Below, piece by piece: positions 5,463 through 50,709 of a stretch of DNA of 60,556 nucleotides; position 1 is the first letter of the stretch, and every line of letters starts with the position of its first letter. A model generated the notes under the pieces. It was given only the letters and a program-made list of their open reading frames with translations, was not told the origin of the DNA and made no database searches. A program made the translations under genes and the position numbers. The DNA comes from Candidatus Moranbacteria bacterium RIFOXYB1_FULL_43_19. Its GTDB lineage: Bacteria; Patescibacteriota; Minisyncoccia; Moranbacterales; UBA11712. The DNA lies in assembly GCA_001784875.1 (NCBI GenBank), contig MFSH01000006.1, positions 1 to 60,556 of the forward strand, given 5' to 3'.

Positions 5463-5987
5463 TTATTCCTCGGAATATTTTTTGACTAAAAACCGGAAAA
5501 AGTCCAGCTTCTTTTCGGTCGCCAGATTTATGCCGGCCTTCTCGGAAGCGATGGAAATCTGTTGCCAGGCAGTTTCGATTGCTTCAAGGCCGGGCAGCAG
5601 CAATCCGCACCGCCCGTCAGGAGCTTTCACAATAACACCGTATTTTTTCGGGTCAAGGCTTTCAGGATTTGCAATTTTTTCCGGCTCGCTCAAGATGCTG
5701 ACTTCGATGGATAATTTCGGCAATTCCTCCGGACTCACAGGAAAGAAACGATTATCCTGAGAACAAGCGGTAACGGCGTTCAGAACGATTTCTTCGGCCA
5801 GATTTTTGTGGACCGGGAGATATGTGCCGATACATCCCCGCAATTCTTTGCCTTTATGAATACTCACGAAAACTCCATTTTTTTTCTCATAAAATTCCGG
5901 CGGCAAGTTGTCCGGAATATCGATAATTTTTCGGTGCTTGATGTATTTCTCTATCGCTCTTCGCGCTAATTTTGCGTATTCGTTCAT
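5463..5987 (-). CDS. amrA: AmmeMemoRadiSam system protein A (AMMECR1 family)
   Basis: GVFVSIHKGKELRGCIGT, DNRFFPV, IEVSILS, GLLLP motifs. Confidence 0.93.
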   Translation of the reverse strand: MNEYAKLARRAIEKYIKHRKIIDIPDNLPPEFYEKKNGVFVSIHKGKELRGCIGTYLPVHKNLAEEIVLNAVTACSQDNRFFPVSPEELPKLSIEVSILSEPEKIANPESLDPKKYGVIVKAPDGRCGLLLPGLEAIETAWQQISIASEKAGINLATEKKLDFFRFLVKKYSEE

Positions 5988-6005
5988 TTTGAAATGAATT
6001 GATCT

Positions 6006-6803
6006 TTATTTAATATTCAAGTTAACAACCATATACCCGACTCCGAACGGCGCTTCGTAGCTCAAGGATTTCACCTCCCATCTCAAATTTTCCAGAGCCC
6101 CCAAAAGCATGATAATCGACCTTAGTCCGCATTCCCCGGCGTCTTCAATAAGATACGGATCAAGATTGAGAATCCCCTTGGTATTTTTCCGCCGGATAAG
6201 ATCAGCAAGTGTCCTGTCGAAGATTCTTCCCTGGGGCGAATAGCCAGCCGGAGAGTCGGAAGTGACCCGGTGCGACAAGTCGCCGCTGGCAATGAAAGAA
6301 ACTATTTTGGGACTGCTCTCGAGAACTTTTCCCAAAACTTCTCCGAAATGGAAATGATAGTCAAAAGGCAACATGGAAAAAGACATATGGATAAGCCGCG
6401 GATTATAGCTTACGTCCTTTTCACTGATCAGATAGTGAAGGGGGACCAGCGCGCCATGGTCAAGTTCCAATTCTCTCGCCAGGCCGACCGGCAAGTGGGA
6501 TGAGCGGCAGTTTTTTACTATTTCGTCAATGAGCTCGCGGTCGTTTTCGAAGATGAATTTTCTATGGTCGCCGAAAGAGGAAAGATCGCCGCGAAGGGTG
6601 GGGGAGTAGTTTATAATGAACTTGTCGTATTGGACCGGTCCGTGGGGCGAAACAATCACAATCGTGTCCGCTTTCACGGAGCGGAATTTTTCTCCCGCCG
6701 CTTTCATCGCGTTCACGGTCTTTCGGCACAAATTCAAGTTGCTCCGGCCGATAGTCGGAATGATGATAGGCGGATGGGGGGTAATGGCGGCATATCTAAT
6801 CAT
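6006..6803 (-). CDS. amrB: AmmeMemoRadiSam system protein B (MEMO1 / extradiol dioxygenase-like)
   Basis: PHPP, SPHG, LDHGALVPL, ASGDLSH, ECG, SYEAPFGVGY motifs. Confidence 0.9.
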   Translation of the reverse strand: MIRYAAITPHPPIIIPTIGRSNLNLCRKTVNAMKAAGEKFRSVKADTIVIVSPHGPVQYDKFIINYSPTLRGDLSSFGDHRKFIFENDRELIDEIVKNCRSSHLPVGLARELELDHGALVPLHYLISEKDVSYNPRLIHMSFSMLPFDYHFHFGEVLGKVLESSPKIVSFIASGDLSHRVTSDSPAGYSPQGRIFDRTLADLIRRKNTKGILNLDPYLIEDAGECGLRSIIMLLGALENLRWEVKSLSYEAPFGVGYMVVNLNIK

Positions 6804-7696
6804 ATGTTTCCCGTATAAACATGCTTGAGTCCGGCTTTTTTTCCGATTTCACAGGCTTCTTTCACTTTTTCAACTGGCGTTTCGGAAAGGCGCTGGAGTT
6901 TCCAGGAGATGGCTCCCGAAAAAGCGCTCACGTGCCAGGGAACAAAATCACCCAGTTCTTTTCTGATGAAATTGGCAATTTTTTCAAGCATTTTTTTGTC
7001 GTCCGATAATTTTGGGATTATAAGGGTTGTAATCTCCAGCCAAATCTTTTTTTTCACAATCTCCTTGCAGTTTTCGAGAACCGGCTTGAGCCGGGCTCCG
7101 CAATTTTCAAGGTAGAATTTGTCATCGAAGGACTTGATGTCTATGTTTATGGCGTCGAGATAGGGCGCCACAAGCTCCAGAGTTTCCGGGCTCATAAAAC
7201 CGTTGGAAACCCAGATATTTTTGAGCCCCGCTTTTCTGGCCAGCTTCATGGTGTCAAGGGCATATTCGAGAAAGATTGTCGGTTCGGTGTAGGTATAGGA
7301 GATGCTCGGGCATCCGCTTTCCTTTGCCAGCCGGACAACTTCTTTCGGCGGAAGATTTTCTCCGCTTCCCGCGATCATCTCGCGGGTTGCTTTCCGACTT
7401 TTCGAAAATTGGGAAATTTGCCAATTCTGGCAGTTCCCACAGCGGAAATTGCACCCGACAGTGGCGATGGAAAAGGTGAATGTACCGGGCAAAAAATGAT
7501 AAAGCGGTTTTTTTTCCACCGGATCAATGCTGGCCGCAACAGCCCTTCCATAAGCGAGGAAGTATAGTTTTCCGTCCACATTCTCCCGCACTCCGCAAAC
7601 TCCGCGATGCCCCGGCGCCACTAGACAGAAATGATTGCAGGTTTTGCATCGGACATTATTATTTCCTAATCTTTCGTATAAAACGGATTCTTTCAT
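6800..7696 (-). CDS. amrS: AmmeMemoRadiSam system radical SAM enzyme
   Basis: N-terminal C..C...C zinc-like motif, DPVEKKPLYHF, CNFRCGNCQN (CxxxCxxC), YTYTEPTI. Confidence 0.95.
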   Translation of the reverse strand: MKESVLYERLGNNNVRCKTCNHFCLVAPGHRGVCGVRENVDGKLYFLAYGRAVAASIDPVEKKPLYHFLPGTFTFSIATVGCNFRCGNCQNWQISQFSKSRKATREMIAGSGENLPPKEVVRLAKESGCPSISYTYTEPTIFLEYALDTMKLARKAGLKNIWVSNGFMSPETLELVAPYLDAINIDIKSFDDKFYLENCGARLKPVLENCKEIVKKKIWLEITTLIIPKLSDDKKMLEKIANFIRKELGDFVPWHVSAFSGAISWKLQRLSETPVEKVKEACEIGKKAGLKHVYTGNI

Positions 7697-14703: not shown

Positions 14704-14763
14704 AAAGCTCGGCTTTTTCCTCCCTCCCTTCGCGAAGGGAGGGATTCCTCAAAGCCAAGCTTT
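14704..14763. repeat. Nested palindromic element
   Basis: AAAGCTCGGCTTT (14704-16) and AAAGCCAAGCTTT (14751-63) are inverted (12/13); they flank the perfect palindrome TCCCTCCCTTCGCGAAGGGAGGGA (14721-44). Confidence 0.75.
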
Positions 14764-16625
14764 TAGTTTCGTTTAAAAACCGAAATGTAATTTGAACTAT
14801 ATATCTTGGAAAAATCCGGATATTGTTCGAAACTGTTTCCTTCGAGTTGAGCGTTCAGGACGACGTAATTCACTCCTGTTTCTGAAAAGCACAGTCTTCC
14901 CTGGTCGCTTTCGGGCTCCATGATCATGTCCCTCGTGCAGATTTCCCGAGGTTTTGTCGGATCAACATAGCGTGACAAATTCCCGCGGCTCAAAGGATAT
15001 CTATAGTCTTTCATAAAAAACAACTTGTACCAGGAATCGGCGTATATGTTCACATGGTCCTTGAGCACCACGTCCTTCGCGGTGTCCAACCTGTCGGCCA
15101 AATACTGGGCGGAATGAAAGGTCTGGATGGCTTCCTGAAACTGCGGCCGGGTCTTGAATGCTTCGGCGCTGTCAGCCATTCCATCCGTGATCACAAAAAA
15201 CAGCAGAACGAAAAGGAGGACGGAAGAAAAAAAGACAGTCGAACTCTTTTTGAAAAGCCTCAAAAATTCAACCAGGCCAAAAGCGGCAAGCAGAGAAAGC
15301 GGAAGATACAGATAATTCCCGATCCGGTCGCTGGGAATATTGACATAGAGCCACCCCGGCTTCGCGCTCATGAGGAGCAATACGGCTGCCCAGGCGAGAG
15401 CGAAGCTGAATTGGTAATCTTTCCTATTAAAAACCCAAAAAAGCAATGCGAACCCCAAAGCGCCAAGAATTAGCCTCGCGCTTCCGGCATTTGCCTCTAT
15501 CTGATTGAAGCTTAGTCCGACTCTGGTTATTTTTGACGGCTCGCCGGTGGCCTGGCTGACAGCCGAAGGGTTGAAATAAGAGGGAGTAAATATAAGTAAA
15601 AAGTAAAAAGTTAAAAGAAAAAGGATGACTATCGGGAAAGGCTTTAAAAATATTTTCAGCCAATCGCCCATGATTTTGAAAGCCCGCTCAAAATTGAGCC
15701 CGAGATGGAGCAAAATAATCGCGGCGATTGAATAAAGCAAAATAAAACTTGAAAGATGGTGGGTATATAGAAGTCCGACACTCGAAAAAATAAAAAGGCT
15801 GGCAAAGACTGAATCTTTTTCTGAAAGCGCCCGATACAAAAAGTACAAAACAACCGGAATGAGCATGTTGCCGATGATATTTCCGACTACGCCGCCGCTA
15901 ACATACTTTGCTTGAGGGGCATTTATCGCGTATAAAACTCCGGTGACAAAAAAAGCCATGGCTGCTATTTTCGGGCTTTTGAAAATCCTTCCAGCGAGTA
16001 TTGACAGAGCAAATATCCCGACGATATTGAAAAAAAGCAAAACAAGGGCCGGCATCGCCCCTAAAATCGCCGCGCCGCTCAAAAGATTGAAAACCGAAAA
16101 AACCATATGTTCGCCGATAATAAAGTCCGGCATTCCGTAGTCAGGAAGCTGGCCGCTGTCAACAATTGCCTGACTCCAATACATATGGTGGCCCAGATCA
16201 GTGGAAGAGGGAATGATCGTATCCGAAAGATAAGTTGTTCGAATGAAAATCGCGAGAAATAGCGAGATCAGGATGAAAATTGCCTGCCAATAAGAAAAAT
16301 TAAAGAAATCATGCAATACTTCTTTTTTTCCGGCCTCTTTTTTTTCTTTTCCGGTGAAGCGAAATTGAAAAATTATATATCCGATAATCGAAAAAATGAG
16401 AATTGATCCAACGAGAACCGGTCCGCTCAAAAAAATATGCATCCGGTTGAGAAGCAAAACCAGAAAATCAACCGAAATCAAGCTCATAGGAACAGTGAGA
16501 ACTGCTTTTTCGAAAAAAGAAATTTTTGAATTTCTCCAGCCAAAAACAGCCAGTAAAAGACAGAATCCTGGGAGCACAAGCACGAAAGGAAAAGTCAAAA
16601 TGAGTTTTAGCAGATCTAAAATCAT
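14763..16625 (-). CDS. Multi-pass membrane protein, GT-C-like (DUF6541/DUF2206-like)
   Basis: 620 aa, more than 12 TM; VLPG...S.FEK N-terminus, luminal PSSTDLGHH, YTHHLS, C-terminal soluble domain. Confidence 0.7.
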   Translation of the reverse strand: MILDLLKLILTFPFVLVLPGFCLLLAVFGWRNSKISFFEKAVLTVPMSLISVDFLVLLLNRMHIFLSGPVLVGSILIFSIIGYIIFQFRFTGKEKKEAGKKEVLHDFFNFSYWQAIFILISLFLAIFIRTTYLSDTIIPSSTDLGHHMYWSQAIVDSGQLPDYGMPDFIIGEHMVFSVFNLLSGAAILGAMPALVLLFFNIVGIFALSILAGRIFKSPKIAAMAFFVTGVLYAINAPQAKYVSGGVVGNIIGNMLIPVVLYFLYRALSEKDSVFASLFIFSSVGLLYTHHLSSFILLYSIAAIILLHLGLNFERAFKIMGDWLKIFLKPFPIVILFLLTFYFLLIFTPSYFNPSAVSQATGEPSKITRVGLSFNQIEANAGSARLILGALGFALLFWVFNRKDYQFSFALAWAAVLLLMSAKPGWLYVNIPSDRIGNYLYLPLSLLAAFGLVEFLRLFKKSSTVFFSSVLLFVLLFFVITDGMADSAEAFKTRPQFQEAIQTFHSAQYLADRLDTAKDVVLKDHVNIYADSWYKLFFMKDYRYPLSRGNLSRYVDPTKPREICTRDMIMEPESDQGRLCFSETGVNYVVLNAQLEGNSFEQYPDFSKIYSSNYISVFKRN

Positions 16626-21986: not shown

Positions 21987-22166
21987 ATGTCTAAGGGAGG
22001 AAAATGTTACGTCCATGAGAAGCACTATCCTCATGGAAAACCAGTAGCAAAAAAGGTCGCGCCTCCGGTTGTTTCAACGGAAATCATGCAAAGGGCCCTC
22101 GACTCTATCGGGCGTTTTCAAAAAAGGACCGCGGATTCAATTCCCGGCTCCAGCACGCCCAAATAA
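21987..22166 (+). CDS. Small basic hypothetical protein (59 aa)
   Basis: SD AGGGAGG 8 nt upstream; candidate promoter upstream and hairpin terminator downstream. Confidence 0.7.
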   Translation: MSKGGKCYVHEKHYPHGKPVAKKVAPPVVSTEIMQRALDSIGRFQKRTADSIPGSSTPK

Positions 22167-22202: not shown

Positions 22203-22226
22203 AAGGCGGCCAACGGTCGCCTTTAT
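22203..22226 (+). terminator. Hairpin, probable terminator
   Basis: AAGGCGGCC-AAC-GGTCGCCTT then TAT. Confidence 0.5.
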
Positions 22227-22361
22227 CATTTCCAAGTCAAATACTTGCAAAAATAACGAGGATATTGTATTTTGTATATTGAAAAAAGGAGCAGGAGGGC
22301 TCTGTTTTTTTGACAGATTCCTGCCCTTTAAAAACCTGCAAAGGAAAGGTGGTGATCCCGA

Positions 22362-25037
22362 ATGTCTGAGTTTGATGAAGAAATTCTGGAAATGGTTACC
22401 AGAATAATCCCGGAAGAAGATCCCGAAGAAGACCTCGGGATACCGTTTTTTCCTGTTGAACCATCTAGGGAAGATTTTCCGGAAAACGAAGAGCTGCAAT
22501 CTGGCGAAGGGATTGACCCTTTTTCGGCCAAATTCAATGATCCGGTTCGGCTATATCTCAGGGATATGGCAACCTTTCAAGTTCTTACCCGCGAAGGAGA
22601 AATTGGGATTGCTCAACGGATCGAAGCCGGAGAAAAAGATGTGTTTCTTGCTCTTTTGGAAATTCCCTACACCGCCAAAGTAATTGCCGGTCTTCTCCAC
22701 GTGTTTGAGTTGGAACCGGAACAGGAAAAACCGAATCCGGAAGAATATTCCATTGATTTTTTCGGGAATGGAGTTGTTCCAGAACAAAACCAACTCACTC
22801 AAAAGAAAAGAATGCTGGGTTTTATCCGGAACTTTCTCCTAAAAGACGACAAAGTCCAACAATTGGAAAAGAACCTTGCTTCCTTTCCGGAAAAGAGCGA
22901 GATGCGCGGCCGAATCCAACTGAAAATTGTAAGCCTTCGCCGCCACATGGCCGATCTTCTCAACGCTTTGCATTTTGATCTCTTGGATATGGATCCGGCC
23001 CTGAGTGTATTGCGCCAGTCAGCATCCCGGCTTCGTGATCTAAACCGAAAAATGAGCCGCGCTCTGGCTCCGTTCGGCTTTTCGGTGACCAGATTCCGCG
23101 AGCTTGTCAGGAAAGCCAACAAAGACGAAAATTCATTTCTTCATTTAAAAATGAATCCGGAACAATTGGCGGAACTAGTTGGGATGCAAAAAGAAATCCG
23201 CAAAGAATCATACGGAATTGAGCAAAAAATCGGTTTAACCGGCCCTCGACTCTTGGCTGCTATGGACCGGCTGGAAAAAGCCGATCGGGAGATCCAAAAG
23301 GCAAAACGGGATATGGTCCAAGCCAACCTCCGGCTTGTCGTGAGTATCGCGAAAAAATATACTCACCGGGGTTTGCAATTTTTGGATCTTATTCAGGAAG
23401 GCAATACAGGTCTCATGAAATCTGCGGGAAAGTTTGAATATAAACGCGGCTACAAATTTTCGACCTATGCGACCTGGTGGATCCGCCAGGCCATCACCCG
23501 GGCGATTGCCGACCAAGCGCGGACTATCCGCATCCCGGTTCATATGATCGAATCCATCAACAAGATCCTTCGCACGTCCCGCTACCTGGTTCAGGAACTG
23601 GGGCGCGAACCTACCCCGGAGGAAATTGCGGCTAAAATGGAGATGCCTTTGGGAAAGATCCTCAAAGGCCTCTGTATTGCCAAAGAGCCGTTCTCTCTTG
23701 AAACGCCCATCGGTGACGATGGCGACGACTTTTTGGGAAATTTCATTGAGGATAAAATAATTCCCACTCCCTTTAAAGCCGTAAGTGACATCAATTTAGC
23801 GGATCAAATCCGCAAGACGCTCACTGCCTTAAGCCCTCGCGAGGAAAAGGTTGTCCGCAAAAGGTTTGGCATCGGCGAAAAGCATGATCAAACATTGGAA
23901 GAAATCGGCCAAGAATTTGAGGTGACCCGGGAACGCATACGCCAAATCGAGGCAAAGGGATTGCAGAAGTTGCGGCATCCGTCCCGAGCAAAACGCTTGG
24001 GGGGCTTCACTGAAGATTGCGGAAAAGAAAAAAAACGGTACAATGCCGGAAATCCTCCTCCCTCACCGGTGCTTGCTGACCCTGAACCGGTTCCCAAAAT
24101 CATCTTCAACCCAAACCATTGGAGCCCGAAAGAAGTAGAAGATGATTCGCCTCCGGAGTTCTTCAAAATCTCTGAAATTCCTGAATCTCGACCCAAAAGT
24201 CCGCTGTCTTCAAAAACGCCGACCAAAGCGGGTTTCGGTAATCCTGGACCAAGGGTTTTCCCTCCGGAAAACTTGCCCCGAATTTTTGAGATCGTTCTTT
24301 CGCCGATCCAATGGGAAATAGTCCGCCGTTTCTTCAACGGTGGAGCGGAGAAACTCGAGTGTTCAGAGATCGGCTGTCTGGAATCCGTGCGAAAGCTGAA
24401 TAGCGGATTTTCGATGCAGCCAAGCCGAGTGGCAAGAATAAAGGACAGGGCCCTGAATATCCTGGCAACTTTTGTCGGGCATTCGCTGCCCGATAGTTTG
24501 TATGTCTGGGACACATGGCTGCATAATCTCGTTCTTGCGATTGAGAGGCGTAAATCGGCTCTGCGTCTTGGACTCGAAACGACACTATGTCTGACCGAAT
24601 TTTTCAAACCCGTTGCAATCAACGACGGGGATCGCCGCATATCCAAAACCAAAAAACCGGAAAGGTACGAAGAAACTGCAAATATGATTATCGCACGCGT
24701 GCCGCCGGAAGGATCTCAAGGTATCGGCGAAAACAGGCAGCTCGTGATTTTCAGGGATAGGAAAGCATTAATTCTTTATCCTGAACTTGCCGAGGCTATT
24801 CGTATCCGGCTGAAAAAAGGAGGTAAAAACCTTCAGAAAAATAGCGTCAGTCCGGAAATCGCCAAGATTATCACAGGTCTCAAGCCTTCTGATATGAAAC
24901 TGCTCAAGCTACTTGGCATAGACCAGTTGAAAGTTGGAAAGGCAACGAGCCATCAGCTTAATGTAACGCCCCTAGTTCTCATTTCGATGGTGGAGGAACT
25001 TATCGAAAAGATAACCGGCCTGTCTTCAGGCTCTTGA
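22362..25037 (+). CDS. RpoD-like group-1 sigma factor with a C-terminal extension of about 340 aa
   Basis: DPVRLYL (region 1.2), [66 protein letters not shown]; ORF stays open to 891 aa. Confidence 0.9.
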
Positions 25038-25039
25038 CC

Positions 25040-25070
25040 AACGCCCACAGCATAGCTTTGGGCGTTTTTT
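25040..25070 (+). terminator. Intrinsic terminator after the sigma gene
   Basis: AACGCCCA...TGGGCGTT followed by TTTT. Confidence 0.75.
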
Positions 25071-25074
25071 ATAT

Positions 25075-25103
25075 TTGCATTGCCATAATTATTATTTTAT
25101 AAT
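25075..25103 (+). promoter_or_regulatory. Putative sigma70 promoter for the LCP-GT2-S41 operon
   Basis: TTGCAT-17 nt-TATAAT. Confidence 0.65.
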
Positions 25104-25173
25104 ATACTCGCTAATGATGCCTTTGGGGCAAGTTATTTTTATTTTGAGCGTAAACCAATAAAGAGCAAAAAAT

Positions 25174-33184: not shown

Positions 33185-34336
33185 TTATGACTTTTTAATA
33201 AAAAAACTCTTGCTTTCTTTGTCTACGATTTTCGCTTTTTCAGCTTCCTTGCGCGTTTTAAATGGCAAAACGCCGAGAATATTTTTCAAGGCGATGCCGT
33301 CAATCTTGAGCACGTCTTCCCATTTGTCCAGCGGCTCTAAAATCGCGCGCAGTTTTTCTTTGTCGTATTTATAAGCCTTTCGAAGCGTCCGCAAAATTCG
33401 CCCGGCATCGGAAAAAACCTGTTCCACGTTCTCCTGGTCCATATAGCCGGATAATATCTCCTGCAGCTCTCCGATGCGATCCGTTTTTGATTTCACTTCG
33501 TCCTTAAGCGAAATATACTCTTCAATAATCTTTTCCGTATCGATATCTTTTTTCGCTTTATCTTTGAATTTGTGTTTCCACATCGGGCAGATATTCTGGT
33601 ATCCGCACCAGTCGCAAAGCCCGGAAATCTGCGGTTCAAACTTTGATTGGCTTATTTGATTGATGAGGTCGAGCATTAATTCTTCGCTTTTCTTTACCTC
33701 GTCAAGTGTCCTTTGCGAGGTGAGTTTCACTCCGTGCTTGAGATAATAGAGGCTGACTTTTATTTTTCCAAGATTGTCAATTTCTTTCGGATAGCGCTTG
33801 AGAAATCCCGCGAGATATATCGAAAGCTGGAGATCGTTGTCCACTTTTTCCTGGCTCGGCAGCTTGCGGGTGGTTTTATAATCAATAATTTCGTATCCGT
33901 CTTCAGTTTTATCTATCCTATCAATTATGCCACTTACTATGTGATTTTCTTTTTTTACCCCGTGGTCCGACTTGTCGGACTTTACGGAGCCTATTTCGAC
34001 CTGAAAACGGGATTCAAGATCTATGATGTTTGTCTTTGCTGGATCATTTTTTTTGTAATAATCCTGAAGCATGGAAACTCCCTGCGCGAAGGCCGATCGC
34101 TCTTCCGTTTCATCCGCAAAAACCTCGGCGTTCCAATTTTTGGAAAAAAAATCAAGCGCCTGCTCGAGAGTTGGAGAAAGAATACCCGGCGTGTGGACAA
34201 CTTTCAAAGTGTTATGAAGAAGCGTGCCGAAAAACTGCTCTTTTGATTTCGGAGTTTTTAGGCGGTCTATTTGCTGGTATTTGTATTTCCGGGGACACGT
34301 CAGAAACGTGTCGAGGGCGGAATAGGAGGTGTTCAT
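33185..34336 (-). CDS. PD-(D/E)XK nuclease (AddB/RexB C-terminal-like, 4 Cys)
   Basis: SYSALDTFLTCP, GTLLH, GIIDRID, IIDYKT, QLSIY, CDWCGYQNICP; start taken at MNTSYS (34336). Confidence 0.88.
   Translation of the reverse strand: MNTSYSALDTFLTCPRKYKYQQIDRLKTPKSKEQFFGTLLHNTLKVVHTPGILSPTLEQALDFFSKNWNAEVFADETEERSAFAQGVSMLQDYYKKNDPAKTNIIDLESRFQVEIGSVKSDKSDHGVKKENHIVSGIIDRIDKTEDGYEIIDYKTTRKLPSQEKVDNDLQLSIYLAGFLKRYPKEIDNLGKIKVSLYYLKHGVKLTSQRTLDEVKKSEELMLDLINQISQSKFEPQISGLCDWCGYQNICPMWKHKFKDKAKKDIDTEKIIEEYISLKDEVKSKTDRIGELQEILSGYMDQENVEQVFSDAGRILRTLRKAYKYDKEKLRAILEPLDKWEDVLKIDGIALKNILGVLPFKTRKEAEKAKIVDKESKSFFIKKS
33960..33987. repeat. In-frame palindrome within the nuclease gene
   Basis: CCGT-G-GTCCGAC-TT-GTCGGAC-TTT-ACGG; encodes VKSDKSDHG. 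Confidence 0.55.
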
Positions 34337-34342
34337 GTTGGC

Positions 34343-34407
34343 TTGAAGGTTCGACATTGAGGAATTTTCCGACGAATAGTCGGAAAAGGGAAAGGTCGAA
34401 CCTTGAA
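34343..34407. repeat. Nested palindromic element upstream of the nuclease gene
   Basis: TTGAAGGTTCGACATT vs AAGGTCGAACCTTGAA (14/16 inverted), flanking TTTTCCGAC-GAATA-GTCGGAAAA. Confidence 0.75.
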
Positions 34408-34473
34408 ATTCAAGATTCAAAATTTACCAGTGCCTAATACGCATCTTAACCGCCTTTCCTTCCTTCCGCAAGC

Positions 34474-34482
34474 TGGTATAAT
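34474..34482 (+). promoter_or_regulatory. Extended -10 promoter upstream of the methyltransferase
   Basis: TGGTATAAT (TGn-TATAAT). Confidence 0.45.
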
Positions 34483-34609
34483 GAAAGAAATCAGCCTGTT
34501 TGAAATACCGCCCTTGCGCGAATAGTGATATAGTGATAATATATTGCCAAACAAGTATTTGAAAGATGGCAGCGCAACGAGAAAGAGTGCAGGAGCAAGA
34601 AATAAATTT

Positions 34610-35740
34610 ATGGCGACCAAATCATCGAACAAAAATTTGCACAAGGCGAGCCTTGCCAAGAAAGACGAGTTTTACACTCAACTTGACGATATTGAGAAAG
34701 AGCTAAAACACTACAAAGATCAATTTCGGGGCAAGGTTGTTTATTGCAATTGCGATGATCCGTTTGAGAGCAATTTTTTTAAGTATTTTGCTTCCAATTT
34801 CAACGCGTTAAAGCTAAAAAAACTTATCGCCACAAGCTATGTCAAGTCGCCGATTGTTGGTGGCCAATTGTCTTTATTTGAAATGGAAGGATTGAAGCCG
34901 GAAGGCAAGGAGCCGTTCAAAATCGAAATTAGCGAGGTGTCGGACGTTAATTCTGATGGTGCGGTTGGCCTCACAGATATCGAGTGGTTGCTTCGACATG
35001 ATGCCAATGTCTCGTCGTCCCTCAAGGATGGCGGCGATTTCCGCAGCCAGGAATGTATTGAGCTACTCAAAGAAGCTGATATAGTCGTAACTAATCCGCC
35101 ATTCTCTCTGTTTCGGGAGTATCTCACACAACTCATTGAATACAACAAAAAATTTTTGATTATTGGTAACGTAAATGCAATTACTTATAGAGAGTGTTTC
35201 AAGCTTATAAAAGATAATAAAATGTGGCTCGGGGCAAGCATTCATAGTGGCGATCGAGAGTTTCGAGTGCCCGACAGTTATCCGCTTAATGCGGCAGGGT
35301 TTAGAGTTGATGAAAATGGCAATAAATACATTCGTGTCAAAGGCGTACGTTGGTTCACAAATTTAGACTACAAGGAGCGTCACGAAGAGTTGACCTTGTA
35401 TAAAAATTACAATCCTGAAGAATATCCAAAATATGAGAATTATGATGCAATTAATGTCAATAAGGTTTTAGAAATTCCGAAGGATTATAATGGTATTATT
35501 GGTGTACCAATTACCTTTCTCGATAAATATAATCCGGAACAATTCGAGATTATTGGTTTAGGTATATCTAATTCGGGAAAAGAAATTGGGGTTAAGCCAT
35601 ATAAAGAAGAGCATAAAAAATATAGAAAAGAAATTCAAAAAAGAGGTGCCGTTGATGGTGATTTATATATGATTACAAAAGGAATAGTTGATGTTCCCTA
35701 TGCGAGAGTTATTATAAAAAATAAGAAAGCAAAAAAATAA
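34610..35740 (+). CDS. Adenine-specific DNA methyltransferase, EcoRI family
   Basis: KKDEFYTQL, VYCNCDDPFESNF, GDFRSQEC, VVTNPPFSLFREY (motif IV NPPF), WFTNLD, YARVIIK. Confidence 0.92.
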   Translation: MATKSSNKNLHKASLAKKDEFYTQLDDIEKELKHYKDQFRGKVVYCNCDDPFESNFFKYFASNFNALKLKKLIATSYVKSPIVGGQLSLFEMEGLKPEGKEPFKIEISEVSDVNSDGAVGLTDIEWLLRHDANVSSSLKDGGDFRSQECIELLKEADIVVTNPPFSLFREYLTQLIEYNKKFLIIGNVNAITYRECFKLIKDNKMWLGASIHSGDREFRVPDSYPLNAAGFRVDENGNKYIRVKGVRWFTNLDYKERHEELTLYKNYNPEEYPKYENYDAINVNKVLEIPKDYNGIIGVPITFLDKYNPEQFEIIGLGISNSGKEIGVKPYKEEHKKYRKEIQKRGAVDGDLYMITKGIVDVPYARVIIKNKKAKK

Positions 35741-35761
35741 ATTAGGAAAAATGTATAGACT

Positions 35762-35784
35762 TTCCTAAAGTCGAACTTTAGGAA
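35762..35784. repeat. Perfect palindrome at the MTase-rhuM junction
   Basis: TTCCTAAAGT-CGA-ACTTTAGGAA; same GT-CGA-AC core as the 20679 and 34392 repeats. Confidence 0.75.
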
Positions 35785-35795
35785 TAAGATAACTT

Positions 35796-36833
35796 ATGCC
35801 CAAGAAAAAATTGCCGGACAATCAAATAGCGTTTTATCAGACTCCGGACGGGTCGGTGAACATTGAAGTGCTTTTCGCCCGCGAAAACATGTGGCTCACG
35901 CAAAAGCGAATGGCCGAGCTTTTTGATACGACCGCTCAAAATATTACGATGCATCTGAAAAATATCTACTCTGAAGGAGAATTAGAAGAGCGGGCAACTT
36001 GTAAGGATTTCTTACAAGTTCAAAAAGAGGGAGAAAGAGAAGTAAAGAGAAATCTGACTTTTTATTCCCTCGAAGCCATTATAGCTGTCGGTTATCGCGT
36101 CAATTCTGAACGCGGCACTCAATTCCGCCAGTGGGCGATTGCCATCTTGAAAGAATATATTCACAAGGGCTTTGCTTTGGACAGCGACCGTTTCAAACAC
36201 GGATCAAGATTCAGCGCCAGATTCTTTGACGATTTGCTGGAAGAAATTCGTGACATCAGAAGCAGCGAGAGGATGCTTTATCAGAAAATCACCGATATTT
36301 ACGCGACAGCGATCGATTATTCGCCGAAAACGGAAATCACCAAAAAATTTTTCGCCGCCGTCCAAAACAAATTGCATTTCGCCATCACTGGCAAAACCGC
36401 CGCGGAAATAATCAGCGAGCGGGTGAGCAGCAAAAAGAATAAATTAGGTCTGACCTCGTGGCACCGTGGACCGAAAGGAAAAATAATGCCAAGCGACGTC
36501 GTAATCGCAAAAAATTATTTGAACAGGAAAGAACTCGATCATCTGAACAGAATAGTTTCCTTGTATCTTGATTATGCCGAATTGCAGGCCGCGAGAAGAA
36601 AGCCGATGCGCATGAAAGATTGGGCGGAAAAACTGAACGCATTTTTGAAATTTAGCGAATATGAAATTTTGACCAACGCCGGGAAAATAAGCCATGAAGT
36701 CGCGGAGAGTTTGGCTTTGGGTGAATACGAAAAATTCAACAAGATTCAGGATAAAAACTATATTTCCGATTTTGACCGCGAAGTCAAGAAAATATTAGGC
36801 GTTAAAAATAAGAAAAAAAAGCATGAAAATTGA
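35796..36833 (+). CDS. RhuM family protein
   Basis: WLTQKRMAELF, YSLEAIIAVGYRVNSERGTQFRQWA, IRDIRSSER..YQKITDIYA, VQNKLHFA. Confidence 0.93.
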   Translation: MPKKKLPDNQIAFYQTPDGSVNIEVLFARENMWLTQKRMAELFDTTAQNITMHLKNIYSEGELEERATCKDFLQVQKEGEREVKRNLTFYSLEAIIAVGYRVNSERGTQFRQWAIAILKEYIHKGFALDSDRFKHGSRFSARFFDDLLEEIRDIRSSERMLYQKITDIYATAIDYSPKTEITKKFFAAVQNKLHFAITGKTAAEIISERVSSKKNKLGLTSWHRGPKGKIMPSDVVIAKNYLNRKELDHLNRIVSLYLDYAELQAARRKPMRMKDWAEKLNAFLKFSEYEILTNAGKISHEVAESLALGEYEKFNKIQDKNYISDFDREVKKILGVKNKKKKHEN

Positions 36834-37915
36834 TCTACATAAAATTACAATCCGCAAAGTAATCGTTGGCTATAAAGATAGTGCCGAGGAGGGCGTTGTG
36901 GCTTACGACGGCAAGCTTGATATTCGTCCGAAATATCAGCGTGAGTTCGTGTATAAAGAGAAGCAACGCAATGCCGTGATAGAAACTATCAAAAACAGTT
37001 TTCCATTGAATGTGATGTATTGGATGATAAGAGATGATGGTGGTTTTGAAGTGTTGGACGGCCAACAGCGCACCATCAGCATTGGGCAATATGTGAATGG
37101 CGATTTTTCGCTGAACGACCGTTTTTTTCATAATCTCACCAAAGAAGAACAGGACAAAATTTTGGATTATGAATTGATGATATATTTTTGCGAAGGCACG
37201 GACAAAGAAAGATTGGATTGGTTCAGAATCATCAATGTCGCCGGAGAAAAGTTGACCGACCAGGAAATCCGCAACGCGGTTTACACGGGGCCGTGGCTTT
37301 CTGACGCAAAACTGAAATTCAGCAAATCAAACTGCACGGCATATCTGTTGGCGAATGACGGCGGGCAATTAGTCGGTGGTTCGCCAATCCGGCAGGAGTA
37401 TCTCGAAACTGCTCTTTCGTGGATAAACGACGGCAAGATAGAAGATTATATGGCCAAGCACCAACATAATCAGAACGCTGAAGAATTGTGGCAGTACTTT
37501 CAAGAAGTGATTGCATGGACGCGAAAGATTTTTCCGAATTATCGCCGGGAAATGAGCGGCGTGCAGTGGGGCGAGCTGTATAACCGATTCAAAGATAAAA
37601 AATTTGATTCAAAGAAACTGGAAAAAGAAATAACCAAGTTGATGCAAGACGAAGATGTGACAAAAAAATCCGGAATTTATCCGTATGTTTTGACTCGAAA
37701 TGAAAAATTTTTGAACATTAGGGCGTTTACGGAGAAACAAAAAAAGAGAAGCATATGAAAGGCAAAAAGGTAACTGCAAAAAATGCAAGAAACACTTCGA
37801 AATAGAAGAAATGGAAGCCGATCATATAAAACCTTGGCATGAGGGCGGAAAAACTGTTTCAAAAAATTGCCAAATATTGTGCAAGCAAGACAATCGGACT
37901 AAATCCGGGAAGTAA
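36823..37915 (+). pseudogene. DUF262 (ParB/GmrS-like)-HNH nuclease interrupted by a +1 frameshift
   Basis: RPKYQREFVY and EVLDGQQR in 36823..37758; the next frame after the A7 run (37739-45) reads REAYERQKGNCKKC...EADHIKPWHEGGKT...NCQILCKQDNRTKSGK*. Confidence 0.85.
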
Positions 37916-45803: not shown

Positions 45804-48110
45804 CTATTGATCTATGCTCAGCTGGTAGACCACAATCGTATCCGATTTTTTGTCGGAACGGATTTCTGTTCCATCCGCCGCAAAAACACCAAAGGTAATG
45901 TCATTTTCTCCCGGCTGGATATCGCTTAGGTCCACTGAAATCGCCTGCTTTTGATTGATACTGGTGATATATTTGTTATAAACTTCGTTTCCGTTGAGAA
46001 ACACTTTTGCTCTGAGAGGTTTTGCCACTTTCAAATTGAAATTCATCTCGCCGCTTTGCACAGCGCCGGTCATATTCACCAGCTTCACTCCCGCCCCATT
46101 TTCGGCCCAGCGATGAAGGCCATTTTTCGACTTGCTTTTTCCGACCCAGTGATTGTTTGAATAGTCCATCGCCAGAAACATATGATTGGGCTTTTCTCCG
46201 ACATCAATCTTGCAGGCATAAAGATACTCATCCTGATATTCATCCGCGCATTTTATCACATTCTGGACATATGCTTGAGCTGAATAAAACATATTCAAAT
46301 CGCCCTTGGCCGGATTGCCTTTGAGCCCCTCTTTGTCCAATATTATATAGCGAATATTGTAATAATTCAGTATTTCACTTGAAATGTCATAATATGAATC
46401 TTTCATCATGTCCCGGTCATTGCCGTTGCTCCCGCCCGGCAAATCATAAAGAATTGTTCGAATGATCGGAGTTCCCCGCTGGAAAGTATAGTGATCGTCA
46501 ATCACCCGGGCAAAGTCATATCCGTTGACGGTGTTTTTGCGATGAATGCTTTTCCAGACCAAATCGCGCGATGCAAAGTCGTAATCCGTGCTTCCAGGAA
46601 CTTCAAGGACGCTGTAGTTTTCTTTGTCCTGCCCAAGCTTTTCATAAAAAGAAGAATGCAGCAGTAAGTTTGTTTTGATCGGAACAGCAAGATACTCAAT
46701 GACAATTATTATGGAAATTGCAAAAAATATAATCTTCTGCCCGAGATTGTTCCCGAATAAATAGGCTAACTCTTTTTCCTCTTTGTTTTCATTCAGAACT
46801 TCTTCTTTTATTTTTTCGCTTTTATTTCTTTTTTTTGATATCAAGTACGCAGCTCCCCACGCCGCCAGGACAGAAAATGCCAGCATCGAATACACGAAAA
46901 GCCGCCCGACAGTGCGGATATTATTGAAAAACGGAAGGTAGTTGTAGGTCAAAAGATACGGCATCTTGACCGGCGGCTCGATTTGTCCCTTGAAGTGAAG
47001 ATACGGCCCGAGAGACAAAACATAGAAGCCGAGGGCAACTGCCAGCCAAAACCACTTTTTTGAAATTCGATCCTTGAAAAATGCGAAGATGGATAGCGCC
47101 AGCACCAGAAAACCGACGTAGACAGAAAAAGAGCTTTCAATTTTTCGCTCAAATGTGCCGCGCAGCTTGGCAAAGGCATCCGGCCAAAATGCGTGAAAGC
47201 TCGGCGGGATAAAAACGCTCAAGGTGTCATTTGAGTACTTCACGGCCGCTTTGAATCCCGGATTGAGATAATTATTTTCCGAGGAAGCAATCTTGAAAAG
47301 CGAGCGGAACATAAAAAAGAAAACCAGGGAAAGAACCAGAGCGCCAACAACAGCGTAAATCCAGAATTTTTTCCGCAGAAACACCTTTGGCTGGGTAAAA
47401 ATCTTATATACAAGAAAAAACAAGACAAAAATAAGAGAAAAAGCCAAAAGCTGGTGCTCCGTAAAGGCAATGATGGCCAGAAAAAGTCCGGCAAGAAAAA
47501 AGTATTTTACCTTGAGATTGCCTGCCCCGTTAGAAATTTCCGATGGTCCAGAGATTCGACCATTCGAAATATTTGCGTCTATATTTTTTGAACTGTTATC
47601 ATAATTTCTAACGGGGTCGAAAAATTTGAAAAGATACAGCGCGAAAAAAGGCAGCCACTCTTGATGCATTGTTCCCACGTTCGTGCTCAAAGAATTGTGA
47701 ACGTGGAACGGAGAAAAAGCAAAGATTATTCCGGCGATAAGAGAAGCCGGCTTGCTTCGGGTGAAATAAAAGGCCAAAAGATACATCCCAAAACCGGAAA
47801 GCACAAAAGACAAGAAAAAGAGAAGGTTATAGCCGGCTACGCGCCCGAAAATGATTTCAAAATAGGCATAGATCGTGACTATGTTGAATTCAGAACGCTT
47901 GGCAAGCTCAAGTGTTCCGCCAAAAAAACCATTGTCTTTGAGAACATTGACCCGTTCCCCCGCAACGCCGATAACCTGCATGGTGTCCGAGCCGAGACTT
48001 GGAACCGACGAGAAAAAATGCCAAGCAACCGGCCAAGTGAGGATGACCGTCAGCACTGCATAGAAAAGAATAACTCTAACTTTTTCGTTTTTAAAAATTT
48101 CTGTCTTCAT
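45804..48110 (-). CDS. Large multi-pass membrane protein, GT-C / YfhO-like
   Basis: LGSD, GRVAGYNLL, FAFSPFH, LSLGP, IRTVGR, C-terminal extracellular domain; 768 aa. Confidence 0.75.
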   Translation of the reverse strand: MKTEIFKNEKVRVILFYAVLTVILTWPVAWHFFSSVPSLGSDTMQVIGVAGERVNVLKDNGFFGGTLELAKRSEFNIVTIYAYFEIIFGRVAGYNLLFFLSFVLSGFGMYLLAFYFTRSKPASLIAGIIFAFSPFHVHNSLSTNVGTMHQEWLPFFALYLFKFFDPVRNYDNSSKNIDANISNGRISGPSEISNGAGNLKVKYFFLAGLFLAIIAFTEHQLLAFSLIFVLFFLVYKIFTQPKVFLRKKFWIYAVVGALVLSLVFFFMFRSLFKIASSENNYLNPGFKAAVKYSNDTLSVFIPPSFHAFWPDAFAKLRGTFERKIESSFSVYVGFLVLALSIFAFFKDRISKKWFWLAVALGFYVLSLGPYLHFKGQIEPPVKMPYLLTYNYLPFFNNIRTVGRLFVYSMLAFSVLAAWGAAYLISKKRNKSEKIKEEVLNENKEEKELAYLFGNNLGQKIIFFAISIIIVIEYLAVPIKTNLLLHSSFYEKLGQDKENYSVLEVPGSTDYDFASRDLVWKSIHRKNTVNGYDFARVIDDHYTFQRGTPIIRTILYDLPGGSNGNDRDMMKDSYYDISSEILNYYNIRYIILDKEGLKGNPAKGDLNMFYSAQAYVQNVIKCADEYQDEYLYACKIDVGEKPNHMFLAMDYSNNHWVGKSKSKNGLHRWAENGAGVKLVNMTGAVQSGEMNFNLKVAKPLRAKVFLNGNEVYNKYITSINQKQAISVDLSDIQPGENDITFGVFAADGTEIRSDKKSDTIVVYQLSIDQ
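47525..47616. mobile_element. 92-bp inverted-repeat element inserted in frame
   Basis: CCCCGTTAGAAATT / AATTTCTAACGGGG, perfect 14-bp termini; encodes PVRNYDNSS...SEISNG between TM segments. Confidence 0.85.
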
Positions 48111-48966: not shown

Positions 48967-50709
48967 TTATTTCCACAAATCTTTCCAAAATATACGGTTT
49001 GATTTCTCGTTTTCCTCTCCTGCGCTTTTATAGGTCGGCAAGAGCTGGCCGGCAAAATTTTCTTTCAGAGCCAATTTGTATACTCCTACAGCGCCGATTT
49101 TGTTTTGCTCGCCAGCCTCAAATTCCGCCTGTATTTTTTTATCAATCGGCAATTTTTTCGTCCGTGTCAGCCCCATTGCGAAAACGCATTTTTCCTCGTC
49201 TCCTGTTTTCAGGCTGCTTATGGAAATAGCTTTTATTCCTTTTTGCTCCAACAAATATTTCACGGGCCTTTTATACTCGGCAGGCGCATTGTAATACACT
49301 TCCTTTTCTGAACAGTTTTTCTCCATATATTCTGTGGCTTTTTCAAGGTGCCAAAGAACAATTCCGTCTTTAGCTTTGAGAATTATTGTCCGCCGGGGAT
49401 AAGTCCCTTTTTTCTGGGCTGCTTCGATTTCCTTAAACCAGGCAAATGTCCCAACCAAGTTTCCGAAGAATATGACCAGAAGGACAGCCGCGACACAAAC
49501 CTTCCAAAATGCGTGCCTCTTTCGCCAGAATAATGTCGCGATATACCCTGCAAATATGAACGGCAGCCCTAAAAGAGGAAGAAAAAATCTCGGCCGGATC
49601 TGATAGGCCACAGGAATATACGTGAGAAAATAAACCAAAAACCAGAGGAGCGAAACCAGGATAAAGTTTTTTTTCACCAAGTTTTTTTCCTGACGGAAAG
49701 ATCGAAGACCGACGTAAAGCGCCGGTAAAATTGCGCCCAACCAGGCTAGAGCCGCGCTGCTTATCCCGCTTTTACGGCTTATCCAACTGGTCAGAATAAG
49801 CAACCAATTCTGCCCCCAATACCGCACATCCCGATTCACATTTTTCCAAAAACTGTGCGCTGATGGCTTTTCTTTGAGCGCCAGCATGAATTGACGGGTA
49901 TTTTCTCCTTTGGAGGCAATTTCATTCAAAATCACCGGGATATACACCAAAAGGACAATCGCCAAAAACAAAAGGATATATTTCCAGTTGAGCGCTTTTC
50001 TTGCATATTTCCAGTTGAAAATAATGAATAATACTGTAATCACAGGCAGCGTAAGAAAAGAAAGAAAATGAAGCTGGGTCGAAACGGCGAAAGAAAATCC
50101 GGCCAGAACCACCCAGCGAAGCCGGTATTTTATTCCCTCGCCCCGCACTGTTTTCCCTTTTTCAACAGGGTGCGGTATTTCTTTGTCCTGCTTATTTTTT
50201 GCTAAAGAAGTGGCGCAGGGTAAATCGAATACATTGAGAAGCGAAAAGAAAAAAAGAAGATTGAAGAAGACGAGACCGTTTGGATTCCAGGCAAAGCGGG
50301 AATATTGGACTCCCAAAAAGCAAACGGCGTAGAGGCTCGCCAGGATCATCGACCAGTCACGCGAAAAGTATTTCTTGGAAAACACATAGAAAAGCGGGAT
50401 GGACAGAATTCCGAACAGAAGATCCGGAAATGCCAGGACCGCCGGATGGGCGCTTTGAAAAAGAACGGCCGCAGCATATTGGAAATAGTAGAAGGCCGGC
50501 CCAAGATTGAGATCTGTTCCGCCAGCTTTTGGTCCAAGGAGCGGCAGCCAGCCGGGGCCCAGTTCAAGGGCTTGCCGAATGGTAGATGCGTCCCGCGCCT
50601 GGTCCATCTTGAAAAAAAGCCAATCGGAAAAATTTGATACGCGAAGAAAAACCGCGAGGGCAATAATGGCAAAAAATAAGATTATTTTCCAGTTTGGTTT
50701 GGATTTCAT
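48967..50709 (-). CDS. GT39/ArnT/PMT-like membrane glycosyltransferase
   Basis: LRVSNF...KMDQARD, LLGPKAG...LGPAFYYF, YSRFAWNPN, QLHF, PRFF. Confidence 0.8.
   Translation of the reverse strand: MKSKPNWKIILFFAIIALAVFLRVSNFSDWLFFKMDQARDASTIRQALELGPGWLPLLGPKAGGTDLNLGPAFYYFQYAAAVLFQSAHPAVLAFPDLLFGILSIPLFYVFSKKYFSRDWSMILASLYAVCFLGVQYSRFAWNPNGLVFFNLLFFFSLLNVFDLPCATSLAKNKQDKEIPHPVEKGKTVRGEGIKYRLRWVVLAGFSFAVSTQLHFLSFLTLPVITVLFIIFNWKYARKALNWKYILLFLAIVLLVYIPVILNEIASKGENTRQFMLALKEKPSAHSFWKNVNRDVRYWGQNWLLILTSWISRKSGISSAALAWLGAILPALYVGLRSFRQEKNLVKKNFILVSLLWFLVYFLTYIPVAYQIRPRFFLPLLGLPFIFAGYIATLFWRKRHAFWKVCVAAVLLVIFFGNLVGTFAWFKEIEAAQKKGTYPRRTIILKAKDGIVLWHLEKATEYMEKNCSEKEVYYNAPAEYKRPVKYLLEQKGIKAISISSLKTGDEEKCVFAMGLTRTKKLPIDKKIQAEFEAGEQNKIGAVGVYKLALKENFAGQLLPTYKSAGEENEKSNRIFWKDLWK
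50141..50221. repeat. Degenerate inverted-repeat element in frame in the GT39 gene
   Basis: CCCCGCAC...TGGCGCAGGGT with an internal CCGCAC-TGTT / AACA-GG-GTGCGG hairpin; hydrophilic insert of about 27 aa. Confidence 0.45.

Follow-up and report, generated by a model that had tools for sequence, protein, structure and literature searches.

Sigma factors of the primary type normally end right after region 4.2. Those of group 4, the extracytoplasmic function (ECF) sigmas, have regions 2 and 4 only, with SnoaL-like, TPR or Cys-rich sensor domains as their extensions, and in ECF41, ECF42 and related groups a fused C-terminal domain controls the sigma. OrbS is described as an ECF sigma factor with a C-terminal extension (PMC9023288). 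Here we describe a gene of a different build from Candidatus Moranbacteria bacterium RIFOXYB1_FULL_43_19 (GCA_001784875.1, contig MFSH01000006.1; the 60,556-nt stretch that was analysed is called the window below), in which a primary-type sigma factor continues in frame into a long, lineage-specific tail with putative region-4-like domains. The source is a groundwater bacterium with tiny cells, and the Moranbacteria belong to the Candidate Phyla Radiation (CPR). Literature searches returned no primary-type sigma with a C-terminal region-4-like extension and nothing on the sigma factors of the CPR or Moranbacteria; by these searches, a full RpoD-type sigma with further region-4-like domains on a long linker is not a described architecture. 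We consider it moderately probable that the protein is an anciently acquired and probably accessory sigma fused to a resident module, and favor this over a housekeeping role, which appears unlikely.

The closest described relatives of the sigma part are the RpoDs of Desulfobaccales/Thermodesulfobacteriota, with which it shares regions 1.2, 2, 3 and 4, a non-conserved region of ~225 residues and the -10 and -35 contacts that were checked, and to which it is 53-58% identical overall and 78-80% in regions 2-4. The Desulfobaccales RpoDs are ~575 residues long and end a few residues past region 4.2, whereas the window protein has 340 residues more; at the other end it has an N-terminus of 59 residues against ~85. 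Unlike these RpoDs, the window sigma is found in a CPR genome and in an envelope-glycan locus, and has evolved much faster. ECF41, ECF42 and OrbS also possess an extra domain after region 4 that possibly modulates their own activity, but the likeness is one of analogy only: the window protein, unlike ECF sigmas, has regions 1.2 and 3 and the non-conserved region, and its extension consists of putative region-4-like helical modules and lacks a Pfam family. MzaA of the MZA anti-phage system (NCBIfam NF041931) likewise combines an RpoD-like core with a large extra region; identity with MzaA was rejected at 377.5 bits against a cut-off of 800, and the extra region of MzaA is N-terminal, the match starting only from model position 331.

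The features of the gene and its leader are the following:

22362-25037, + strand: fused sigma open reading frame (ORF), complete, 891 residues plus stop, from the ORF listing

22362-22538, + strand: acidic N-terminal segment, residues 1-59, occupying the position of region 1.1

22539-22637, + strand: sigma-70 region 1.2, residues 60-92 (Pfam PF00140, E = 6e-9)

22638-23312, + strand: non-conserved region between regions 1.2 and 2.1, residues 93-317, 225 residues, from the PRK05658 alignment

23313-24014, + strand: sigma regions 2, 3 and 4 (Pfam matches at residues 318-388, 397-472 and 487-539; RpoD model to residue 551)

24015-24281, + strand: proline-rich linker, residues 552-640, 22% Pro, with a short conserved motif IIFNPNHW; low-confidence model

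24291-24464, + strand: second, degenerate sigma-region-4-like segment, residues ~644-701, from hhalign

24720-25034, + strand: conserved C-terminal domain, residues 787-891, predicted as a beta-hairpin plus five helices of sigma4/LuxR-like fold

22248-22361, + strand: conserved upstream region (~110 nt), aligned over four sigma-fused and three sigma-less loci

Domain models show residues 1-551 to be a complete primary-type (RpoD) sigma-70. PF00140, PF04542, PF04539 and PF04545 all match above their gathering scores and in order, and the best model, NCBIfam PRK05658 (proteobacterial-type RpoD), aligns without a break over residues 56-551 (model positions 114-630); the sigma part ends at about nt 24014 and 340 more residues (552-891) follow in frame. 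Both equivalog thresholds are narrowly missed, with scores of 541.2 against a cut-off of 555 for PRK05658 and 352.8 against 354 for TIGR02393 (RpoD_Cterm). The non-conserved region is homologous to that of the proteobacterial/Desulfobaccales type, with ~40% identity to Desulfobaccales RpoD; there is no Pfam Sigma70_ner match in the window sigma. The segment in the place of region 1.1 is weakly conserved among the fused orthologues and gives no Sigma70_r1_1 match at E <= 1; the closest Desulfobaccales homologs likewise have no precomputed r1_1 match. A reading made earlier from the letters of the window and its ORF translations (hereafter the sequence-only reading) had drawn much the same layout, and its ~230-residue non-conserved region between regions 1.2 and 2.1 (225 as measured), its intact regions 2-4 up to about nt 24018 (alignment end at residue 551, about nt 24014) and its onward frame of ~340 residues with a Pro-rich linker (340 residues, with 22% proline in residues 552-640) were all borne out. 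Its account of the N-terminus was right as to an acidic segment of ~55-59 residues but not as to 55 acidic residues, there being only 19 D/E among the 59 (32%), with a net charge of -16.

The fused gene is real and intact in a Moranbacteria-related CPR bacterium. The identical 891-residue product is encoded on 16 independently assembled contigs from ENA, NCBI, JGI and Logan assemblies (the NCBI copy is GCA_001784975.1, contig MFSN01000027.1), and the remaining members of its 90% cluster are the same sequence clipped at contig ends. Four further full-length fused orthologs are P0002 (896 residues), P0122 (795 residues), L014 (860 residues, on a 438-kb JGI contig) and P0133 (910 residues), and the frame through sigma and tail is open in five divergent lineages. 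An assembly or annotation artefact—a missed stop, a frameshift or a chimeric contig of CPR and Desulfobaccales DNA—might be suspected from GCA_003154175.1 and GCA_003157295.1, in which the ortholog is called as two overlapping ORFs (L007, 8695-11434, and L008). However, it is a stretch of N in the scaffold, within the part coding for region 2, that splits the gene there, and the same gene is whole, as the 910-residue P0133, on six ENA contigs of up to 294 kb. With the identical product on 16 contigs from four sources, the open frame in five lineages and a host-like GC content at third codon positions (GC3), an artefact is next to inconceivable. The stop after ...GGFTED that the sequence-only reading had itself named as fatal, and the chimera that it wanted excluded, are ruled out by the 16 contigs and the four further fused orthologs.

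The fused orthologs occupy syntenic loci with the same gene order: a family 4 glycosyltransferase (GT4), a Wzy_C-type gene (WzyC), a second GT4, the fused gene, a LytR-CpsA-Psr (LCP) gene, a family 2 glycosyltransferase (GT2), an S41 peptidase, ribosomal protein L9, CTP synthase and L27. One of these loci is labeled Candidatus Moraniibacteriota (Parcubacteria group within Patescibacteria); between that lineage and the window, the proteins flanking the gene share 58-87% identity.

The ancestry of the sigma part was traced by a search of 5.8 billion proteins, from which the best 120 matches were considered. Other than the window's own fragment and P0002, all of these are RpoDs of 500-576 residues (mostly ~575), and their 53-58% identity extends across the whole sigma (~500 residues). 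The named organisms among them are Desulfobaccales, Thermodesulfobacteriota or bear the generic labels of Proteobacteria/Pseudomonadota bacterium metagenome-assembled genomes; no CPR organism name occurs among the best 120. Over regions 2-4, Desulfobaccales RpoD is at least as similar to each fused sigma (78-89% identity) as the other fused sigmas are (69-84%), while two Desulfobaccales RpoDs are 98% identical to each other; in these alignments, the pattern is that of a single donor-like branch that evolves slowly beside several recipient branches that evolve fast. We also built a neighbor-joining tree from the fused sigmas and 118 unfused Desulfobaccales-type proteins, rooted with E. coli RpoD. 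In this tree the sigmas of the window, L014, P0002 and L007 form an exclusive clade that is sister to the 118 unfused proteins, with P0122 just below, and no unfused protein is placed among the fused ones; the distances are 0.44-0.61 from fused to unfused sigmas and 0.88-1.10 to E. coli.

Horizontal acquisition from an rpoD of the Desulfobaccales/Thermodesulfobacteriota type is, on these comparisons, the best-supported origin, though not a proven one. The GC3 of the sigma gene is 50.6%, inside the host range of 44-54%, and as a test of composition gives no foreign signal. Given this host-like composition and the presence of the fusion in five divergent lineages, any transfer would be old. The RpoD affinity of the acquired, deltaproteobacterial-like sigma proposed in the sequence-only reading holds, with the revision that the transfer would be an old one.

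The fused sigmas evolve fast, yet the promoter-contact residues that were checked in the window are kept. Among the 118 Desulfobaccales-type RpoDs, 282 positions reach a conservation of 97% or more; at these, the fused sigmas show 30-73 changes, with 60 in the window. None of the window changes falls at the -10 contacts Y425, Y430, W433, W434, Q437 and T440 or at the -35 contacts R584, E585, R586, R588 and Q589, which we take to be the promoter-contacting residues (E. coli numbering). The sigma-finger motif is altered from DSHLGD to DDFLGN, and in P0122 the non-conserved region is shorter by ~80 residues. For the window compared with L014, dN is 0.143 in regions 2-4, 0.60 in the non-conserved region and 0.76 in the N-terminus, against 0.07-0.20 in the flanking genes, with a saturated dS that makes dN/dS only a rough guide. 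Set against the flanking genes, the divergence of the non-conserved region and of the N-terminus is four to eight times faster, while regions 2-4, with a dN of 0.143 against saturated dS, are by this measure under purifying selection. Because the checked contact positions are kept and regions 2-4 are under such selection, the sigma is probably still functional for ordinary -35/-10 promoters. It does nonetheless evolve faster than the LCP, GT2 and S41 proteins of the same genomes: the window and L014 are 22% apart in regions 2-4, as against 13-17% for these three and 2% between two Desulfobaccales RpoDs.

It is very unlikely that the sigma part is a decaying passenger and that only the C-terminal module matters. 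The changes at the conserved positions, the accelerated core, the altered sigma finger, the shortening in P0122 and the interchangeability of the sigma with a non-sigma N-terminus at the same locus (see below) could all be taken that way; but five lineages retain an open frame of ~550 codons, regions 2-4 still share 79-89% identity with Desulfobaccales RpoD and have the checked contacts intact, and their dN lies far under the saturated dS.

Sigma-less relatives of the tail came from an index-free search of 1.84 billion representative proteins with a tail profile, which found only 9 representatives; a word-indexed protein search gave one match with the extension and two with the family alignment. 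Among the 9, P0001, P0002, P0121 and P0122 are sigma fusions, full-length or fragments, and P0124 is the end of the L014 fusion, while P0123, P0125, P0126 and P0127 are proteins of 296-463 residues without sigma domains. P0126 lies between GT4 and LCP-GT2, with one further gene that ends at the contig edge, and P0127 and P0125 each come immediately after the same GT4; P0123 is on a 1.8-kb contig without a flanking gene. In BLASTP the window protein matches the sigma-less ones over the last 93-187 residues only (44-56% identity, E = 1e-30 to 5e-46), and their N-terminal parts are unrelated to sigma. Decayed sigma cores were considered for these N-termini and rejected, hhalign giving only a non-significant region 4.1 match (P = 0.06-0.26). 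Conversely, tblastn at E <= 10 found nothing significant of a sigma-less N-terminus in or upstream of the fused genes. The sequence-only reading had a sigma extended by additional modules; simple accretion does not describe what is seen, as the C-terminal 95-190 residues are homologous to proteins that have no sigma at all.

The variable middle of the family contains repeated short motifs, E-x-LPLFSG and SLFFWLDWEATGLPLFE, two to four per protein (in the proteins P0123, P0126, P0127 and P0002, and in L014 5730-8312, P0133 and P0125). L014 has GERRFIFGxPPxxxxMLFSEIGTPIFP twice, and the window protein retains only a degenerate trace of the repeated motifs. Such repeated peptides (LPLF, MLFSEIG) look like docking motifs, and LPLF is, we presume, loosely reminiscent of sliding-clamp-binding peptides.

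The two forms of the gene are old and interleaved among close relatives. Judged by the flanking GT4, no locus is closer to the sigma-less L012 than the fused L007 (82% identity), and there are two subtypes of the terminal domain, each with fused and sigma-less members. This interleaving would mean that the 5' part has been exchanged between lineages, or gained and lost repeatedly. The proportion of synonymous differences (pS) between the window and L014 is saturated at 0.73-0.79 in the sigma (22362-24014 versus 5730-7400), against 0.59-0.67 in the flanks, a contrast that hints at sigma alleles older than the genome backbone and is compatible with allelic exchange, though no proof of it. Scans of viral contigs with both terminal-domain subtypes found no relatives, and hence there is no sign of a phage origin. 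Nor does anything in the analysis support the host-directed regulator that the sequence-only reading had offered among its options.

The sigma-less relatives also bear on whether the fused protein is the sole housekeeping sigma, a foreign rpoD having displaced the native one or the type being native to the clade, with the tail as a lineage-specific embellishment. We regard this as improbable, even though the protein has all the regions and conserved promoter-contact positions as far as checked, comes within 2-14 bits of the equivalog cut-offs of the NCBIfam RpoD models, is preceded by a very strong ribosome-binding site and a conserved putative promoter (see below), and is intact in five divergent lineages; moreover, no second sigma gene is found in the 60-kb window, which is the only part of the genome covered. 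Sister lineages whose flanking GT4 is 69-82% identical have a sigma-less protein at the locus, and therefore an essential sigma would have to be encoded elsewhere in them. The 22% difference in regions 2-4, set against the 13-17% of LCP, GT2 and S41, and the ~80 residues dropped by P0122 are also at odds with a housekeeping role. Thus an accessory role is favored because of the fast evolution, the shortened non-conserved region of P0122 and the lack of a sigma at the relatives' locus.

The tail itself falls outside the curated families: Pfam reports none on the window extension even at E <= 10, and only sub-threshold matches on family members. An AlphaFold2 model of the whole 340-residue extension from three sequences is unusable (pLDDT 39). 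The middle segment aligns in register with the protein's own region 4 in hhalign (P = 2.6e-4, score 24.9); 200 column shuffles gave a mean score of 9.6 (sd 2.2, maximum 18.6), and 0/200 reached 24.9. The segment has a 9-residue insertion ahead of the putative recognition helix, and an alternative alignment register exists. It is also found in P0133 and P0122, and the unit is clearer in P0002, in which the equivalent segment matches Pfam Sigma70_r4 at E = 0.003, below the gathering score. When PDB sequences were searched with profiles of the terminal domain and of the middle segment, the matches were all either insignificant (ArsR-type, E ~0.7) or spurious (a leucine-rich repeat protein).

The C-terminal domain is the only part common to all fused and sigma-less family members. 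An AlphaFold2 model of the terminal 105 residues from nine sequences is confident (pLDDT 85.8, pTM 0.75). Foldseek of this domain against the PDB and viral models returned nothing at E <= 0.001, with lists headed by region 4 of sigma-28, WhiG, SigW, SigH and SigE, ECF sigmas and LuxR-type regulators, and a best match at E = 0.04, probability 0.99 and a query-normalised TM-score of 0.51. As modeled, the terminal 105 residues are helical with a putative region-4-like topology, reminiscent of sigma region 4 and the LuxR-GerE helix-turn-helix (HTH) effector domains, as in sigma-28 FliA, DosR and EL222. The terminal domain differs from these in an additional beta-hairpin and helix at its N-terminal end and in a putative recognition helix that is not basic; the matches to region 4/LuxR-type families are weak (E >= 0.04, TM-score ~0.5), and no sequence family is hit at curated thresholds.

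The leader of the gene is conserved more strongly than the surrounding coding sequences and is common to sigma-fused and sigma-less genes. Its equivalents lie at L014 5628-5729, L007 8573-8694, L011 7895-8000, L012 1288-1391, L013 461-574 and L010 22-140. It contains a putative promoter, TTGCAA/TTGCCA-N17-TAnnTT, and the 18-mer AAGGAGCAGGAGGGCTCT at 22286-22303, which occurs once in the window and has an exact copy in 6/7 distinct loci, L007 (and its duplicates L008/L009) having a 2-nt insertion. A stem AAAGG.GCAG/CTGCCCTTT enclosing a small hairpin is predicted, with apparent compensatory changes (CTCTATT..AATAGAG) in L011 and L013, and downstream of the stem-loop lies a long Shine-Dalgarno sequence of 13 nt, GGAAAGGTGGTGATCC, with which the CCCTTT arm could pair alternatively. 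Rfam has no match in the window at gathering scores and none in the upstream region at E <= 1.

We propose that an rpoD was acquired horizontally long ago and then fused to a resident gene of an envelope-polysaccharide locus, and that its 5' part may later have been exchanged by recombination, or repeatedly gained and lost. In the promoter complex, the C-terminus of sigma is found at the upstream edge, which is where the polymerase encounters activators and upstream DNA. On the flexible 89-residue proline-rich linker, one or two extra region-4-like domains would come to lie close to this edge, and the linker could let them reach upstream DNA or the polymerase flap. There the extra domains might bind an upstream DNA element and thereby provide promoter selectivity or autoregulation, the conserved leader being a candidate element; alternatively, they might act in cis as a region-4 mimic or a partner-binding domain that gates sigma activity.

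Several observations weigh against this proposal. In the tree, the sampled Desulfobaccales-type sequences do not enclose the fused clade but form its sister group, and the case for a horizontal origin rests on the best matches and the non-conserved region rather than on a phylogeny of wide sampling, the tree covering fused, Desulfobaccales-type and E. coli sigmas. If the genome has no other group-1 sigma, the fused protein would be its housekeeping sigma, and the purifying selection on regions 2-4 is gauged from the rough dN/dS given above. L014 has no middle region-4-like segment, only two copies of the MLFSEIGTPIFP motif instead, and the segment in the window may be a remnant of a fuller unit, as alignment with P0002 suggests 27 residues lost. 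As for the terminal domain, its fold matches are all above E = 0.01, its sequence profile is not significantly similar to true region 4 (P = 0.26), and its putative recognition helix is acidic and hydrophobic, with a net charge of -2 and one basic residue. The leader is conserved but shows almost no covariation in the RNAalifold stem.

Since the putative recognition helix is acidic and hydrophobic, DNA binding by the terminal domain is doubtful, whereas for the middle unit it is plausible. The repeated HTH-like modules of the sequence-only reading are a fair description with moderate support. Its second sigma4-like segment gains from the hhalign result and loses from the missing Pfam match in the window and the absence from L014; its terminal HTH-like stretch is backed by the confident sigma4/LuxR-like model and qualified by the weak Foldseek E-values and the non-significant profile match.

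The acidic and hydrophobic helix would also suit a tail that is a cis-acting regulatory module of the anti-sigma-like or autoinhibitory kind rather than a DNA-binding one, its domains occupying the polymerase flap or sigma surfaces and coming free in response to a signal or a partner. Sigma/anti-sigma complexes are among the best structural matches, the LPLF and MLFSEIG repeats of the homologs resemble docking motifs, and the regulation of ECF41, ECF42 and related groups by their fused domains offers a parallel. However, no similarity of the tail to a known anti-sigma domain was detected, the sigma-less homologs would need a separate sigma and have none adjacent, and the terminal domain as a whole is basic (net charge +7). 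On balance, we give such autoinhibition a low probability.

The fusion of an acquired sigma to a resident module, which we prefer, can be extended to a more specific and rather speculative picture, itself not probable, in which the GT4-LCP slot is a modular recombining locus with a conserved promoter and leader, an exchangeable 5' cassette and a conserved region-4-like C-terminal domain. The cassette would encode a complete sigma-70 that has been domesticated, or else a short N-terminus unrelated to sigma. The fused form would then amount to a sigma together with its own promoter-specific factor, a single polypeptide with up to three region-4-like domains that delivers RNA polymerase to a cognate element, for which the invariant leader is a candidate. 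If true, this would be gene-specific control wiring in a genome with very few regulators.

Two further elements lie in the immediate surroundings of the gene. Between the GT4 and the sigma gene is a small ORF of 59 residues (21987-22166, + strand; MSKGGKCYVHEKHYPHGKP...) with its own ribosome-binding site, to which a terminator-like hairpin at 22203-22223 belongs; it is conserved in L014 (MSRSGKNYVHEKHHPFGRP...) and absent in L007, L011, L012 and L013, where the intergenic gap is only ~105-125 nt. Between the sigma gene and LCP (25068-25108, + strand) are strong sigma-70-like promoter matches, TTGCCA-N17-TATACT and TTTGCA-N18-TATAAT, and the -35 there is of the TTGCCA type, as upstream of the sigma gene's relatives.

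The remainder of the window consists of ordinary small-genome housekeeping and envelope genes, and no defense genes directly flank the fused gene. Farther away, a nuclease/modification cluster at 33185-37758, with a PD-(D/E)XK (Cas4-like) protein, an EcoRI-type methylase, a RhuM-family protein and a protein with a GmrSD N-terminal domain, is probably a restriction or defense islet. At 5463-7696 (- strand) genes for AMMECR1, a LigB-family (Memo-like) protein and a radical SAM protein stand in a row, presumably the widespread conserved trio of unknown function. In or beside the glycosyltransferase clusters are four large ORFs, at 14763-16625 (- strand, 620 residues), 45804-48110 (- strand, 768 residues), 48967-50709 (- strand, 580 residues) and 58891-60468 (+ strand, 525 residues), none of which has a Pfam match at E <= 1e-5; orthologs of the first give weak DUF6541 or DUF1616 matches.

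The family is very small, with 9 representatives in 1.84 billion proteins, and its reach is correspondingly narrow. To our knowledge, transcriptional regulation in the CPR is almost unexplored and no genetic study is possible yet. The pairing of fused and sigma-less forms at one locus provides a natural comparison for the role of the tail. If functional, the fused protein would give the Candidate Phyla Radiation an example of a natural sigma-regulator fusion, and would document a cross-phylum transfer of rpoD that was retained, ameliorated and rebuilt.

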